This document shows, in pieces, positions 13,560 to 19,885 of a stretch of DNA of 41,615 nucleotides. Where the stretch lies: the IMG/VR virus record IMGVR_UViG_3300027744_000042, positions 1-41,615 of that record; one strand, 5' to 3'. Below the pieces are notes generated by a model. That model saw only the letters and a program-made list of their open reading frames with translations, did not search any database and was not told where the DNA came from. Source of the DNA: a virus (Duplodnaviria > Caudoviricetes). Every line of letters starts with the position of its first letter. Position 1 is the first letter of the stretch. The position numbers were made by a program, and so were the translations under genes.

Positions 13560-13801
13560 TTTATGAAAATTCTTCTATATCTTTGATTTTAAGCGTTATA
13601 AACATGTTTAGCGCCAGGAATAGAGCAATTGTCCCCTACCGGGCCATAAAAAAGGTCAATTTGGGGTAAAAAACGCGGCAGCTATCAAGCAAACACAGTG
13701 AGCAGAGGGGCCCGAAAGGAAAAAAAGAAAGGTGTGGTACGGACGTGCGTGTTGTTGAGTGGAGGGTACCGTGTGTTGCGAGCTAGGTGTTTGCGTGAGC
13801 C

Positions 13802-13814: not shown

Positions 13815-13843
13815 CGGTGGTGGTGTTCTGTTGGTTTAATCCA

Positions 13844-14050
13844 ATGACAAGCAAGTGTTACACCATGGAAGTTGAACGTTATGGCGAGTGGGTTGAATAT
13901 ACATTCATGCCACTCGATGACGGGTCGGTATGGACGAAGCCGAGCTTTGGCGCGGTAAAGACACTCCCAGCCGAAGAAGCACGGCGGCTTTGGCGAGCAT
14001 TGCTCCGTAAGGGGTGGGTTCTCCAGCCTGAACCCTGCATCAACTTTTGA
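13844..14050 (+). CDS. Early hypothetical protein
   Basis: ATG lies in the shared TTAATCCAATGACAAGCA leader; EARRLWRALLRKGW C-terminus. Confidence 0.7.
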   Translation: MTSKCYTMEVERYGEWVEYTFMPLDDGSVWTKPSFGAVKTLPAEEARRLWRALLRKGWVLQPEPCINF

Positions 14051-14054
14051 CTAC

Positions 14055-14120
14055 GGCGAAACCGGGGGCTTCGGTCCCTGGTCCGGTAGCTTGACATGCT
14101 GCCGCTGATGAGCCTGTCAG
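14055..14120 (+). ncRNA. Type II hammerhead ribozyme with loop I-3' tail pseudoknot; predicted cleavage after C14083
   Basis: GGC-GAAA-[CCGGGGGC TTCG GTCCCTGG]-TC-[CGGTAGC TTGACAT GCTGCCG]-CTGATGA-GCC-TGTCAG; all core nucleotides and three stems present. Confidence 0.93.
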
Positions 14121-14147: not shown

Positions 14148-14177
14148 CTTGCGGTTATGTCCCACTGGGTTAATCCA

Positions 14178-14390
14178 ATGACAAGCACCATGCTGCGTGA
14201 AGCAGCGAACAATGTATATGCCCGCGATCACATTGGGGGCGCACCAATCTATGGCATCCAGCCAGGGTGGTTCGTTGAACAGTTCCTTGACTTCGTTAAA
14301 ATCTGCCCGCCAGCAGCTACCTGGTCGCAAGCTAAGGTAGAAAACACCATGGCCGCCCTTTGGGTTCTTGATCCCGAAGACCTAATCTGA
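14178..14390 (+). CDS. Early hypothetical protein
   Basis: Same 18-nt start context as 13844; followed by the GGGAGC-TTCG-GCTCCC hairpin at 14400-14415. Confidence 0.65.
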   Translation: MTSTMLREAANNVYARDHIGGAPIYGIQPGWFVEQFLDFVKICPPAATWSQAKVENTMAALWVLDPEDLI

Positions 14391-14623: not shown

Positions 14624-14660
14624 GGGAATTTGTGTAAGTAATTAATACCTACAAGTTGAT

Positions 14661-14707
14661 GGTTGCCTCCAGGGCTAAACAGCCTTAGATGCAGTCCTCA
14701 TGACTGC
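14661..14707 (+). ncRNA. Bistable U/M/D hairpin element, copy 1
   Basis: GGTTGC..AGGGCT-AAAC-AGCCTT..GCAGTC-CTCAT-GACTGC; middle GCAGTC pairs with either flank. Confidence 0.55.
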
Positions 14708-14726
14708 TGTCCTCCGCTCTATTGAC

Positions 14727-14969
14727 ATGGCAACTTTTCTTTCCATCGAAGAAATCCCTGCTTACTTGGAAGATACGTACCTCGTTGATTCCACTGTAGC
14801 TGATCAAGCTTATGAAGCTGTTCAACTCCAGGCACAAGGCCAAGCACGGATGACAGCTATTGCCATCGGTGTAACTGCCGGTCTTGCTGTATATGCCTGG
14901 AAATCACCACTGGGTAAACAGTTGAGAACCAAGATTGCTGCTGCAATCAAACCAGCTGAATCCGTTTAA
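14727..14969 (+). CDS. Early protein with one hydrophobic helix
   Basis: AIAIGVTAGLAVYAW; alternative start at 14700 lies inside the RNA element. Confidence 0.65.
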   Translation: MATFLSIEEIPAYLEDTYLVDSTVADQAYEAVQLQAQGQARMTAIAIGVTAGLAVYAWKSPLGKQLRTKIAAAIKPAESV

Positions 14970-15006
14970 ACGGTCTGGGAGGTGTAATGCCTCCCTCAGC
15001 TATTGC
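14954..15006 (+). ncRNA. tRNA-minihelix-like three-way junction, copy 1
   Basis: AGCTGA/TCAGCT, CCGT-TTAA-ACGG, GGGAGG-TGTAATG-CCTCCC, then ATTGC. Confidence 0.6.
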
Positions 15007-15079
15007 AAGAACAGCCTTAGAGGCAGTTTTTGCTTTTGTGCCTCCAAGGGATATAGGCACCCTGCGCACGGAAACTCCC

Positions 15080-15244
15080 GTGACTTACTTCGACCTCGCA
15101 CACGCCCAGATCCTTCAGGATCGCGTTGAGCTTCTCCAAAACGTTGGAGAGGCCTACAACGAAGCTGAGCTTTCTAGCTGGGCTTGGGAAGTGTTGCTCG
15201 ACCAACACCCAGAGTTTATGCCTGAAGAGGCATGGCTCGGCTGA
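15080..15244 (+). CDS. Small acidic early protein
   Basis: GTG 15080 preferred because the upstream in-frame part (from 14987) runs through RNA structure. Confidence 0.55.
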   Translation: MTYFDLAHAQILQDRVELLQNVGEAYNEAELSSWAWEVLLDQHPEFMPEEAWLG

Positions 15245-15310
15245 TCCGTTTAGGCGGTCAGGGAGCTTCAAGGCTCCCTCAGTCATTGCCCAGTTCGCAG
15301 GAGATGGGCA
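15239..15310 (+). ncRNA. tRNA-minihelix-like three-way junction, copy 2, plus TGCCCA/TGGGCA hairpin
   Basis: GGCTGA/TCAGTC, CCGT-TTAG-GCGG, GGGAGC-TTCAAG-GCTCCC, then ATTGC; changes relative to copy 1 preserve pairing. Confidence 0.6.
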
Positions 15311-15330
15311 CCTGCACCGTTTACCCAGCT

Positions 15331-15582
15331 ATGACAGAAGCTGCTGTGTACAACAAGCTACAAGACCTCCGCCTGCTTGCCAGGAGGGATAATGGTCAAA
15401 TTGACCACCAGTTGGAAACCTTCCGGCTTGAGTTCTTTGCTGCTTTCGAGCAGTATATGGACGGCATGGAAGAGTTGAACTTGACTCCGTTCATCGTAAC
15501 GGCTGACAAGATCATTACTGGCAACAGAGATCTGTTGAGATGGCTCAAGCATGAGTTTGAGCTAGAGGCAGATTTCGGTTGA
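15331..15582 (+). CDS. Early hypothetical protein
   Basis: ATG after the RNA element. Confidence 0.6.
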   Translation: MTEAAVYNKLQDLRLLARRDNGQIDHQLETFRLEFFAAFEQYMDGMEELNLTPFIVTADKIITGNRDLLRWLKHEFELEADFG

Positions 15583-15583
15583 T

Positions 15584-15630
15584 GTTTGCACTAAGGGGCT
15601 ACGGCCCTTTTCTGCAGACTTCATGTCTGC
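15584..15630 (+). ncRNA. Bistable U/M/D hairpin element, copy 2
   Basis: GTTTGCA-CT-AAGGGGC-TACG-GCCCTTT-TC-TGCAGAC-TTCAT-GTCTGC. Confidence 0.7.
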
Positions 15631-15649
15631 TTCCTTTGTTTTTATTATC

Positions 15650-15970
15650 ATGTCACTCGGACGTGTTGTTTTTCTTAGCGCCGCCGCCATTACTGGTGCT
15701 ATTGCTTCGCTCAAGCCTGAGCAACGCAGAAAGCTTAAAGCAGCTACTGCAAAGCAACTACGCAAGCTAGCAAACAAGCTAATGGAAGAAGGAACTCCTC
15801 CTATGTGGAGTGAACCTGAAAGTGGTGACACTGACCAGATTGACTCCAGGGAAGAGGAGCTTACAGCGAAAGAAGAACTTGCAATCGAAAGACTTACAGC
15901 CGAAGAGGTAGCTTCCATTCTTACTGAGGATGAAGTACGCACCATCAACGGCTTCAAAGTCAAGAAGTAA
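15650..15970 (+). CDS. Early protein: hydrophobic N-terminus, basic middle, acidic LT-x-x-E-E repeats
   Basis: ORF track; ATG 15650 chosen outside the RNA element. Confidence 0.6.
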   Translation: MSLGRVVFLSAAAITGAIASLKPEQRRKLKAATAKQLRKLANKLMEEGTPPMWSEPESGDTDQIDSREEELTAKEELAIERLTAEEVASILTEDEVRTINGFKVKK

Positions 15971-16014
15971 CTTCTAATAAACTTCTAATTTCCTGCTAAT
16001 TAGAAGTTCTATCC

Positions 16015-16038
16015 CGTCCGGTACGACGTTAAACTGCC
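16015..16038 (+). ncRNA. H-type pseudoknot leader, copy 1
   Basis: CGTC/GACG and GGTA/TGCC stems with TTAAAC linker; identical 24-mer at 38011. Confidence 0.65.
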
Positions 16039-16065
16039 CTTAACCTGCCCTCTTGCATTAAAATC

Positions 16066-16311
16066 ATGCGTTCTACCCGTTTTGACGAATCTTTTCTTTA
16101 CCAGAAAGATCCCCGTGACGGTTGGGTTGTTACACTTCATGGCGATTTTGCCGAAATGTTCAGAGTTGATCCTGCTACTGCAAAATCAAAGTATGAACGT
16201 TATGAAGCGCCTCTTGAGTCAATCCGCGATGCTGTAAAAGAGTTGAGAAGCGAGGGATATACCCTTGTTTACAGCCTTGATCTTCAGCTTCGTGAGTTGA
16301 TTCACGCCTAA
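16066..16311 (+). CDS. Early hypothetical protein
   Basis: Bracketed by a pseudoknot and a hammerhead. Confidence 0.7.
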   Translation: MRSTRFDESFLYQKDPRDGWVVTLHGDFAEMFRVDPATAKSKYERYEAPLESIRDAVKELRSEGYTLVYSLDLQLRELIHA

Positions 16312-16378
16312 AAGCGAAACTAGAAGAGGTTTAACCGCCCCTTCTAGTCGGCCAGTTATGCTGGCCCTGATGAGCTTT
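16311..16378 (+). ncRNA. Type II hammerhead ribozyme; predicted cleavage after C16349
   Basis: AAAGC-GAAA-[CTAGAAG..CTTCTAG]-TC-[GGCCAG TTATG CTGGCC]-CTGATGA-GCTTT. Confidence 0.93.
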
Positions 16379-16405
16379 CTATCCTTTACATTCGGAGAAT
16401 TTTAA

Positions 16406-16711
16406 ATGACCATCAAAGTTGTTTACAACACTAACTATGGAGGTTTTAGTATCTCCTTTGCAGCATTAGAAAGAATGCAAAAATTAGGATTTAAAGGCGA
16501 AGCTGCTGTAAGTGAAGAATACGTAGCTCTTTATGATTGCACACGGCACGATCCAATTTTGGTGCAAGCTGTTGAAGAGCTTGGACCCAAAGCAAATGGC
16601 ATACATGCTGATTTAAAAATTGCAACAGTCTCTGGTCCTTATCGTATTGAAGAATATGATGGATCAGAAACAATTAGGGAACCAAATAGTTACAAGTGGA
16701 TCACACCATAA
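16406..16711 (+). CDS. Conserved phage hypothetical protein (YGGFS...RHDPxLV...IEEYDG type)
   Basis: SD GGAG; motif set recognised from many phages. Confidence 0.8.
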   Translation: MTIKVVYNTNYGGFSISFAALERMQKLGFKGEAAVSEEYVALYDCTRHDPILVQAVEELGPKANGIHADLKIATVSGPYRIEEYDGSETIREPNSYKWITP

Positions 16712-16747
16712 TCATAAATTTTTAATTCTCTTATCTTTTTTACAACC

Positions 16748-16981
16748 ATGAGACACATCACAAGATTGCGAATTAACCGTGGGCTAATCCTTCTTGGAAT
16801 AGTATGCGGAGTTTTGTTATCAGCTGCTGCTCAAAAGATTACTAACAGTCAAGTCGTTCGTGACTGCAAACTCGAGACATATGCCCTCATTTGGGAATCT
16901 TCTCCTGTTGGTGATCGAATTATCTGCGTTCGCAAATTGCAAATAGCAAACAAGATATTCCCTATGCCACTTAAAGACTAA
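16748..16981 (+). CDS. Small membrane-anchored protein
   Basis: GLILLGIVCGVLLSAAA; two Cys in the soluble part. Confidence 0.6.
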   Translation: MRHITRLRINRGLILLGIVCGVLLSAAAQKITNSQVVRDCKLETYALIWESSPVGDRIICVRKLQIANKIFPMPLKD

Positions 16982-16992
16982 AGAGGTAGTTT
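16979..16992 (+). promoter_or_regulatory. Early motif copy 4, TAAAGAGGTAGTTT
   Basis: Upstream of 17035. Confidence 0.45.
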
Positions 16993-17034
16993 TTGATTAA
17001 TTGTTTCATCAACTTATTCACTTGCTACTAAATC

Positions 17035-17256
17035 ATGAGTCTTTGTTACTTTCCCCCAACTTCAACAACTGTTCGTATTACTTGGTATGGAGGTGAATCA
17101 ACGCAACTTCATTACGAAGAATTGCACAAATCTTCTGATCCAGAATGCGATCAAGATTGGTTTTGCATAGAAACCAAAACACTTGGTAATGGTGTACCTA
17201 CACAAGTTAAAGAACTTTATCAAGAGATGGTTGTTTTTTACAACGATTCTCAATGA
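17035..17256 (+). CDS. Hypothetical protein
   Basis: ORF track; its stop abuts an RNA element. Confidence 0.65.
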   Translation: MSLCYFPPTSTTVRITWYGGESTQLHYEELHKSSDPECDQDWFCIETKTLGNGVPTQVKELYQEMVVFYNDSQ

Positions 17257-17257
17257 T

Positions 17258-17305
17258 GTTCTCTCTAAGGGGCTACGGCCCTTTACTGAGGACTTCATGT
17301 CCTCA
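17258..17305 (+). ncRNA. Bistable U/M/D hairpin element, copy 3
   Basis: GTTCTC-TC-TAAGGGGC-TACG-GCCCTTTA-CT-GAGGAC-TTCAT-GTCCTC; covaries with copy 2. Confidence 0.7.
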
Positions 17306-17329
17306 TTCTGTACACACCGTTTAACTACC

Positions 17330-17752
17330 ATGTCCTCTGTTAACTCTGGATCTATTGTCGGTACCATTGTGTCTGACATCACTGTCAGAAATCCTAGTGA
17401 TTCTTTGCAAGTAACACAGTTTCGTTGTGCTCCGCTTGACGCCAGGGAAGAAGATAGCGCAATCCCGCTAACTGCTTACAATGGCGTCGGAGCAAACATT
17501 CTGCAACGATATAACAAGGGTGACACCGTTGCCGTGTCTTACCGCTTACGATACAATACCTGGCAAACGCCAGAAGGTGAGCCCCGTGGCCGCATGGAGA
17601 TTGTGGCAACTGCTACAACCACTGTGCGCCTGGGGCAAATCAGCACTGCCAAGCGAGCTGCTGAGGCCGCTGGCATGCAAGAAGACACCCAACCCGTAAA
17701 GGTAGTTCACGCTGAAGTTGTTGAACCAACTTTGGCTGAAGTTCCGTTCTAA
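17330..17752 (+). CDS. ssb: Single-stranded DNA-binding protein (single OB fold)
   Basis: YNKGDTVAVSYRLRYNTWQTPEGEPRGRMEIVA; C-terminal EVPF tail. Confidence 0.85.
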   Translation: MSSVNSGSIVGTIVSDITVRNPSDSLQVTQFRCAPLDAREEDSAIPLTAYNGVGANILQRYNKGDTVAVSYRLRYNTWQTPEGEPRGRMEIVATATTTVRLGQISTAKRAAEAAGMQEDTQPVKVVHAEVVEPTLAEVPF

Positions 17753-17753
17753 C

Positions 17754-17834
17754 GGTTGCATCAAGGGGGATAGGTTCAGCATTTACATTTAAAAATGCAA
17801 ACTTATCCCTTTTCTTGCAGCCCTTACGGCTGCA
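17754..17834 (+). ncRNA. Bistable U/M/D hairpin element, copy 4 (extended inner stem)
   Basis: GGTTGCA-TC-AAGGGGGATAGGTT...AACTTATCCCTTTT-CT-TGCAGCC-CTTAC-GGCTGCA. Confidence 0.65.
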
Positions 17835-17857: not shown

Positions 17858-18058
17858 ATGCGCGATCCCGGCTTTATTGACGAACAACGCAATGCTGATT
17901 TGCTTGATGCCATGGCAGATACTTTTGCAGACCAGCAAGAAGCCATGCGTGAATCTAATCCAGAAGAATGGATAGGATATACGCCTGAATTAAGTGATGC
18001 AGAAGTAAATGCCTGCAGTCACTACAACGAACGTTACACTTATCTACTCTCTGATTAA
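17858..18058 (+). CDS. Small acidic hypothetical protein
   Basis: ATG 17858 after the RNA element. Confidence 0.6.
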   Translation: MRDPGFIDEQRNADLLDAMADTFADQQEAMRESNPEEWIGYTPELSDAEVNACSHYNERYTYLLSD

Positions 18059-19090: not shown

Positions 19091-19103
19091 TTAGAGATAG
19101 TTC
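19091..19103 (+). promoter_or_regulatory. Early motif copy 5, TTAGAGATAGTTC
   Basis: Part of the 44-bp direct repeat. Confidence 0.5.
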
Positions 19104-19176
19104 TTTATTTACCGTCATTACAACCACATTAATGCCAAGTTTATTATGCAACCATAAGTAAACACATTTAAAACTG

Positions 19177-19518
19177 TTAACGAATTAACCCTTTGCGACG
19201 TGCGGCATCTAAAGTACCATCGCCCACCGCACCCGCATTGATGCCCAACCACGCTGCACCAACAAGCGGTAGTTTAGATCCGCCAGCTTCAATAGCGTGC
19301 ATTGCCCATTGATTAGTTATATCTTTGCCACCAAGTGCGCCAGCTCCTGGAAGATTTCCGGTTACAACTTCACTAAAAGTTTTAGCACGCCCCGCAATTT
19401 TGCCAAATAATCCAGCTTGATCACCATAACGTTGTGCTAAAGCTGATGTGTCAATAAAATTACCGCCAGTGGCAGTCTGTTGGGCTAGGTTACCAAAAGC
19501 GTCGCCTGCAAATCTCAT
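19177..19518 (-). CDS. Gly/Ala-rich late-style protein lying in the early arm
   Basis: Own TGTTAAAAT box (19540-19548) and AAGG SD; GAVGDGTL motif. Confidence 0.7.
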   Translation of the reverse strand: MRFAGDAFGNLAQQTATGGNFIDTSALAQRYGDQAGLFGKIAGRAKTFSEVVTGNLPGAGALGGKDITNQWAMHAIEAGGSKLPLVGAAWLGINAGAVGDGTLDAARRKGLIR

Positions 19519-19559: not shown

Positions 19560-19572
19560 TTAAAGATAGTTC
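19560..19572 (+). promoter_or_regulatory. Early motif copy 6, TTAAAGATAGTTC
   Basis: About 29 nt before ATG 19601. Confidence 0.5.
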
Positions 19573-19600
19573 TTTACTTAACGTCATTACAACCACACCA

Positions 19601-19885
19601 ATGCCAATCATTTCCATTGAAAGCGTCACCAAAGAAGATCTTTCTTGCATCATCAAAGATGACCCGGACTTTGAAACACTAACCACTGTTACCGCAGTGC
19701 TAGAAGATGCCAGAGTTACACACCGGCAAACAATGGAAAGTCCTGAGGAATATGGCCCAGGACTTTGCAAAACATCTTTTTGGCTCAATGAAGGTGAAGT
19801 TCTTCCAACTGATGAGAAAGAACTAATTGAGTTCCTTTCTGAAATGCACCTCAGTTGGGAACCTATTACCGTTTCTGATTACTAA
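19601..19885 (+). CDS. Acidic hypothetical protein
   Basis: ORF track; PEEYGPGLC motif. Confidence 0.7.
   Translation: MPIISIESVTKEDLSCIIKDDPDFETLTTVTAVLEDARVTHRQTMESPEEYGPGLCKTSFWLNEGEVLPTDEKELIEFLSEMHLSWEPITVSDY

Follow-up and report, generated by a model that had tools for sequence, protein, structure and literature searches.

An RNA element with three covarying strands in the early regions of cyanophages: a probable RNase III-type processing site whose product could form its own 5' hairpin

Four copies of a compact RNA element are embedded in a 41,615-nucleotide (nt) stretch of phage DNA (IMG/VR virus record IMGVR_UViG_3300027744_000042, positions 1 to 41,615; hereinafter the window, that is, the whole stretch analyzed). 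In each copy, an upstream strand (U) is followed by a small internal loop, an inner hairpin, a middle strand (M), a short spacer and a downstream strand (D), and M can pair with either U or D. The question raised by this locus is why the same strand should be maintained in two mutually exclusive helices. A sequence-only reading proposed a bistable switch, either kinetic or triggered by a ribosome. The comparative analysis described here bears out the two alternative pairings of M, both of which are conserved, and points to a different role. Judging from sequence comparison and folding models, the element is probably a processing site of the RNase III type, and the downstream product of the cut would fold anew to form a blunt hairpin at its 5' end; that the cutting enzyme is RNase III itself seems about an even bet.

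All four copies are on the plus strand, and their U, M and D strands are exactly where the sequence-only reading placed them. Copy 1 (14657..14707; covariance model score 50 bits) is of a leader type without an upstream open reading frame (ORF) and comprises U at 14661-14666, the inner hairpin at 14671-14686, M at 14691-14696 and D at 14702-14707, with the predicted cut at 14690/14691, a possible second cut at 14668/14669 and the downstream ATG at 14727. Copy 2 (15580..15630; 71.9 bits) starts on the TGA of an ORF ending at 15582 and consists of U at 15584-15589, the inner hairpin at 15594-15609, M at 15614-15619 and D at 15625-15630; the predicted cut is at 15613/15614 and the downstream ATG at 15650. 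Copy 3 (17254..17304; 62.9 bits), which starts on the TGA of the ORF 17035-17256, has U at 17258-17263, the inner hairpin at 17268-17283, M at 17288-17293, D at 17299-17304 and a predicted cut at 17287/17288; its downstream ATG, at 17330, opens an SSB-family gene (17330..17752, plus strand; Pfam PF00436, 35.4 bits with the cut-off at 26). Copy 4 (17750..17833; 29.7 bits, outside the training alignment of the model) starts on the TAA of this SSB gene and includes U at 17754-17759, a long inner hairpin at 17764-17812, M at 17817-17822 and D at 17828-17833, with the predicted cut at 17816/17817 and the next ATG at 17858.

A descriptor of this layout built from the copies themselves (5-nt loop, perfect M-D helix of at least 6 base pairs, U-M helix with G-U pairs allowed, inner helix) matches the plus strand of the window four times, all within 3.2 kb and all corresponding to the four copies, and the minus strand not once; in 40 dinucleotide shuffles, it matches 0.45 times per strand, with a maximum of 2. 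The covariance model finds no fifth copy in the window. For copies 2, 3 and 4, none of 200 shuffled versions folds as well (z from -4.6 to -8.6), with a weaker signal for copy 1 (z of -1.3 and -2.2). The long stem extends three pairs further than previously recognized: the NGA/TAA that precedes U pairs with the YCA/TTA of what had been described as a 5-nt loop.

The family to which these copies belong extends far beyond the window. Searches anchored on the SSB gene recovered 10 and 29 viral loci, and pattern scans recovered at least 120, 50 and at least 126 loci, counts that include relatives, so that the homologs are not independent events. The first, loose pattern returned mostly chance matches (U-M pairing at 5 or more of 6 positions in just 20 of the 120 matches listed). 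A descriptor blind to D gave 67 matches among those listed, from which six were removed (one mirror image, four judged by eye to be due to chance or mis-registered, and one partial duplicate), leaving a set of 61 homologs. In a 33-row alignment, 94.8% of the cells pair, compared to only 34-52% in slid-alignment controls, and both partners vary in 11 of the 17 pairs; the M hexamer comes in 19 distinct versions, every one with matching U and D strands. A box-letter pattern that leaves both the five free U-M pairs and D unconstrained provides a further test: 81 of the 93 distinct viral matches among those listed pair U with M at four or more of the five free positions, and 79 of these 81 have the D strand. 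With a similar but not identical control pattern, which starts with TGAT and has a shorter gap, 6 of 119 matches in prokaryote genomes pair likewise, none at all five positions and one with D. Thus, the U-M pairing, the loss of which in homologs would have spoken against the original proposal, is conserved, and U, M and D covary.

A covariance model run on 22 loci (the 29 SSB-anchored loci minus 7 near-duplicates) produced 49 matches that represent all 22 loci and are without exception (49/49) on the coding strand; register counts were made on 45 distinct matches (47 of the 49 were entered, and two rows were in poor register). Cultured T7-like cyanophages S-RIP1, KBS-P-1A (two copies) and P-SCSP2, all three included in the training alignment, carry the element, and the model also matches S-EIV1, which is outside this alignment (E 0.004). 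In P-SSP7, Syn5, S-TIP37, S-SBP1 and T7, the model has no match in the early region, and BLASTN with one copy as the query against cultured phages gives terminator-like partial matches only. The phage groups that carry the element are unrelated but have picocyanobacterial hosts in common, which suggests a host factor. There are no Rfam matches at the gathering score in the window or in eight related loci, and of the eight matches at E up to 10 between 13600 and 18200, none models any copy; the family is absent from Rfam. Nor was a published description found in the literature searched, a search that covered neither subscription papers nor the supplements of large RNA-motif surveys. Altogether, the RNA family is real and widespread, and apparently uncatalogued.

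Several features singled out in the window turn out to be partly local. G-U pairs are indeed present in the U-M helix of every copy in the window, whereas in the family they occur in 44 of the 61 homologs, mostly at one position; the 5-nt loop gives way to an M-D spacer of 2 to 14 nt; and the ATG at the loop-D junction, in frame in three window copies, has a counterpart within the M-D hairpin in only 9 of 61 homologs. The single-strand bias bears on the possibility that the element acts as a DNA hairpin, such as a promoter, origin or recombination site. Both short hairpins would fold as single-stranded DNA on either strand, but the conserved U-M helix is not predicted as DNA, the G-U pairs would be functional on one strand only, and all 49 model matches are on the coding strand, which makes this explanation hardly credible. 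A promoter scan yielded 4 sites against 6.5 expected, none of them at the copies. Integron attC sites and IS200/IS605-type ends, compared by eye, were dropped given that the conserved G-U pairs and the single-strand bias indicate RNA.

The two folds do not appear to be in free exchange. Equilibrium folding predicts for the intact RNA U-M pairing with a probability above 0.8 in 50 of the 61 homologs and M-D pairing above 0.8 in none (0/61); both folds are at or above 0.2 in 7 of the 61 homologs at 37 C and in 4 of the 61 at 20 C, again as an equilibrium prediction only. Given that U-M is transcribed before D exists and is also the predicted dominant fold, a free or kinetic bistable switch fits poorly. 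By contrast, the predicted product RNA that starts at M1, the first base of M, folds into the M-D hairpin in 57 of 61 homologs. The loop ATG is not supported as a means of translational coupling either, because the next ATG (of an ORF of at least 40 codons) is located 17-31 nt past D in 50 of 61 homologs, outside both folds, and no conserved U-tract on which a put-like antitermination mechanism could act was found in the family. An intrinsic terminator, formed by the inner hairpin or by M-D with U-M as the antiterminator, draws on copy 2, in which M-D precedes a T-rich run and is called terminator-like; as this call applies to one of the four copies, five or more T's in the 8 nt past D occur in 14 of 61 homologs, and the T's that follow the inner stem are paired in the long stem (and number three or fewer in 12 of 61), such a role is highly improbable.

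The reading of the long U-M form as an RNase III-like hairpin is, conversely, supported, and suggests an ordered scenario. The long U-M hairpin would form first in the early transcript and would be cut at the internal loop, on one or both strands, probably by host RNase III; M, freed by the cut, would then pair with D, producing a blunt 5' hairpin on the downstream mRNA. RNase III cleavage leaves a 5'-phosphate (PMC1540722), and 5' hairpins are known to stabilize mRNA (PMC3997798); the M-D hairpin might shield the new 5'-phosphate end from 5' sensing by RNase E and from RNase J. The outcome would be gene-sized, stabilized early mRNAs with an open leader of 17-31 nt. For the nicked products, the predicted median binding changes from -9.9 to -2.2 kcal/mol (at 1 M) when D is included; by weakening product binding after the nick, D would serve both release and capping.

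Two lines of evidence converge on the same predicted cut, T^G. First, the 5' edge of the M-D helix is sharp. With the register picked on M2-M5 alone, M1 is paired in 61/61 homologs and 45/45 model matches (57% by chance), the T before it in 35/61 and 28/45 (44%), and the base two upstream of M1 in 6/61 and 3/45 (20%). Second, when the proximal-box numbering of PMC1540722 is mapped onto T7 R1.1, which is then cut at UAU^G, only one of six registers gives both half-sites A-U/U-A at +3 and G at +4, and the downstream product in that register begins at M1. The +3 pair is A-U or U-A in the lower half in 50/61 homologs, where it was not imposed, and in the upper half in 61/61 (imposed) and 40/45; the +4 G is found in the lower half in 56/61 (not imposed) and 42/45, often as G-U rather than G-C, and in the upper half in 37/45. 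The recurrent G-U noticed in the sequence-only reading is this +4 position, mirrored by a G-U in the inner stem. By our own mapping, the G of NGA (59/61) occupies position +9 upstream of the first cut, for which a preference for G is described in PMC6212723, the letter labels of that article likewise being mapped by us.

Several observations weigh against RNase III-type processing. The lower-half +3 pair is A-U or U-A in just 32 of 45 model matches, and the upper +3 and +4 letters were imposed in the set of 61, while the model set was trained on them. The lower-half +1 pair is G-C in 61/61, as imposed by the descriptor, and M1 is G in 45/45 (the upper-half +1 is G-C or C-G in 15/61), whereas G-C at +1 lowers RNase III activity, 7-14-fold for the E. 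coli enzyme and 10-fold for that of Aquifex (PMC1540722, PMC3074117), and E. coli cuts in perfect duplexes favor AU beside the cut (PMC7373196). Of the 122 positions that lie between the cuts (two per homolog), 74 are non-Watson-Crick, compared to approximately 90% pairing in E. coli in vivo double-cut targets (PMC6212723); T7 sites likewise have a loop between the cuts. The distal box is C-G and A-U, not the UA/UG of E. coli; this box may vary among species (PMC1540722) and is dispensable in Aquifex RNase III. The 17-pair interrupted stem has 10 positions in its lower half and, in the upper half, about 8 base pairs in the short variants and more in others, compared to the approximately two helical turns, with a minimum of 11 base pairs on at least one side of the cut, of bacterial RNase III sites (PMC1540722). 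Furthermore, in the window copies the two folds are only 1.3-4.9 kcal/mol apart, in 41 of 61 cofold minima, calculated for the 1 M reference state, M is still paired with U, and, as indicated above, the homologs are not independent. Given the antideterminant at +1, the mismatched center and the differing distal box, we propose that the element acts in the manner of the T7 RNase III signals, without claiming membership in this class. Sequence rules for cyanobacterial RNase III were not found in the literature searched, PMC5829567 gives no cyanobacterial cleavage consensus, and neither T7 record annotates RNase III sites.

The same antideterminant at +1 leaves room for a cut-and-cap or binding role, possibly without cleavage, that involves Mini-III, which is encoded by cyanobacteria, a phage protein, potentially outside the approximately 48% of the phage genome covered by the record, or another double-stranded RNA binder. 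Mini-III needs a paired WSSW at the cleavage center (PMC5141509), where the present element has a mismatched loop; an RNase III domain was not found in the window, and the spread of the element over unrelated phage groups likewise counts against this explanation. We consider such a partner improbable.

The closest parallel to the proposed processing site is found in phage T7, whose RNase III signals R0.3, R0.5, R1, R1.1 and R1.3 likewise separate early genes on a polycistronic phage transcript and likewise consist of an upper stem, an internal loop and a lower stem. R0.3, R0.5 and R1.1 share the layout ACTC-AAGG...CCTT-TAT-G, which is nearly identical to the cyanophage AAGG...CCTT-N3-G, and a 5' hairpin, set back by one base from the end, can form in the R1.1 product as well. 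The cyanophage element differs in its symmetric loop, in that its conserved half is the lower stem, where C-G is invariant and NGA/UCA is present, and in the dedicated, covarying D strand present in nearly all copies; with the cuts at what we take to be their positions in R0.3 and R0.5, the products of these two sites have no comparable hairpin. A cut by RNase III that yields a stabilizing 5' hairpin has been shown experimentally for the Staphylococcus aureus cspA leader (PMC3386247); cspA is one chromosomal gene, whereas the phage element forms a repeated family, has a covarying third strand and is a predicted processing site.

The position of the element next to stop codons is the main argument for a ribosome-gated switch, in which a ribosome at the stop would melt U-M and M would flip to D, blocking or timing cleavage or setting the expression of the next gene. 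As the sequence-only reading had it, U begins 1 nt after a stop codon in copies 2, 3 and 4. In the family, 36 of 61 homologs use the first stem triplet as the in-frame stop of the upstream ORF, and the closest stop is at most 2 nt further in; the footprint of a terminating ribosome would cover U, and the energy gap between the folds of the window copies is small. On the other hand, the triplet is not such a stop in 25 of 61 homologs, 12 of which have a non-stop triplet, 9 of 61 lack an upstream ORF of at least 40 amino acids ending within 200 nt, the downstream start is exposed in both folds, and ribosome gating would not require M-D to end exactly at M1. Moreover, hammerhead ribozymes of these phages abut or overlap stop codons to the same extent: the window and the 29 loci contain 11 distinct hammerheads, all of type II and on the coding strand, and in all 11 the upstream stop is 2-9 nt before the core. 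Tight packing of genes and RNA devices therefore explains the adjacency without a role for the ribosome, and we regard ribosome gating as unlikely.

Two of these type II hammerhead-like elements are located among the four copies in the window, both on the plus strand and with intact cores: one at 14048..14119, at a further junction of early genes (RF02276 below the gathering score; predicted cleavage after 14083), the other at 16309..16378 (also below the gathering score; predicted cleavage after 16349). The former is likely a functional counterpart of the four copies. Clustered phage hammerheads flank single genes or gene blocks and have been proposed to process long phage transcripts (PMC3088659), and, with the type II topology, the 5' end created by cleavage carries stem I. 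The SSB junctions of the 21 loci inspected contain either the element or a substitute, namely a type II hammerhead (L161; L numbers denote individual loci), a tRNA-like element plus a pseudoknot (L157, L158, L160), a compact pseudoknot or a plain long hairpin, the non-hammerhead classes being assigned by eye.

This interchangeability with hammerheads at gene junctions, together with the invariant bases (GA, C-G, U, A-U and G-U), the conserved pyrimidine mismatch and the imperfect fit to RNase III rules, could be taken to indicate a new, protein-free class of self-cleaving ribozyme that would cut itself at T^G, whereupon D would inactivate and cap it, and that would be freely swapped with type II hammerheads and tRNA-like elements. 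Hammerheads self-cleave with a conserved unpaired core (PMC3088659), whereas the cyanophage element has no such core: its conserved bases are nearly all helical and those of the internal loop vary. The two-fold symmetry about the center would suit a dimeric protein, and no Rfam ribozyme match was found for the copies. We therefore view a new ribozyme as a long shot.

If RNase III-type processing is correct, these cyanophages would offset the cost of an exposed 5'-phosphate by means of a built-in third strand, well over a hundred natural candidate substrates would become available for reading the sequence rules of cyanobacterial RNase III, and the element might be a compact part for stabilizing operon segments in cyanobacteria. 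Direct testing appears feasible in phage-host pairs in which the phage carries the element (S-RIP1/WH8101, KBS-P-1A/WH7803 and P-SCSP2/MED4). More generally, cyanophages would then appear to choose among interchangeable RNA devices (the present site, type II hammerheads and tRNA-like elements) for cutting and capping each early gene.

As for the genomic setting, the window encodes, among others, a portal or structural protein, a terminase and a family A DNA polymerase, and is part of a phage genome. The sole cultured match of its phrog_20475 protein is from Synechococcus phage S-EIV1 (51.7% identity), and the window comes from an S-EIV1-like cyanophage. The run of small plus-strand genes that starts at about 13800 and holds all four copies is taken to be the early region because of gene size, orientation and the presence of SSB and DprA-like genes.

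Other RNA-like elements were noticed in these genomes. Additional hammerhead-like elements are present in L133, L135, L141, L144, L148, L149, L159 and L161, and a hammerhead-like match, by pattern alone, precedes the first gene of P-SSP7 (L463), near 475. At the place of copy 3, upstream of SSB, 10 of the 21 loci (L133, L135, L144, L145, L147, L148, L150, L151, L153 and L154) contain a compact, conserved pseudoknot-like element. tRNA-like three-way elements with a 6-base-pair closing stem, a small hairpin and a T-loop-like arm, possible substrates of RNase P or RNase Z, are found at gene junctions: in the window, at 14954-15000 (plus strand), which folds as such, and around 15238-15283 (plus strand), which folds otherwise, and, by eye, on the minus strand of L131 near 13790 and 13500, around SSB in L157, L158 and L160, and near 1328 in L466. 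A small repeat resembling an H-type pseudoknot, with a 4-base-pair stem and a loop that pairs downstream past an A-rich linker (by eye), occurs at about 16010-16040 (plus strand) in the window, several times on the minus strand of L131, and in L157, L158 and L160, and has no Rfam match.

The early region also contains repeats of other kinds. A motif of 14-16 nt (repeat families D2, D7 and D10) recurs on the plus strand at 13798, 14606, 15015, 19087 and 19560; it resembles the 3' strand of copy 1, has no clear partner strand and might act as a promoter or as a site for a protein. Within the run of early genes, a 48-nt direct repeat (19091-19138 and 19560-19607) brackets an inserted ORF of 113 amino acids on the opposite strand (19177-19518, minus). 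A 35-nt direct repeat (D5; 13819-13853 and 14153-14187) surrounds the starts of the first two early ORFs, and related contigs show joints that skip the stretch between its two copies.

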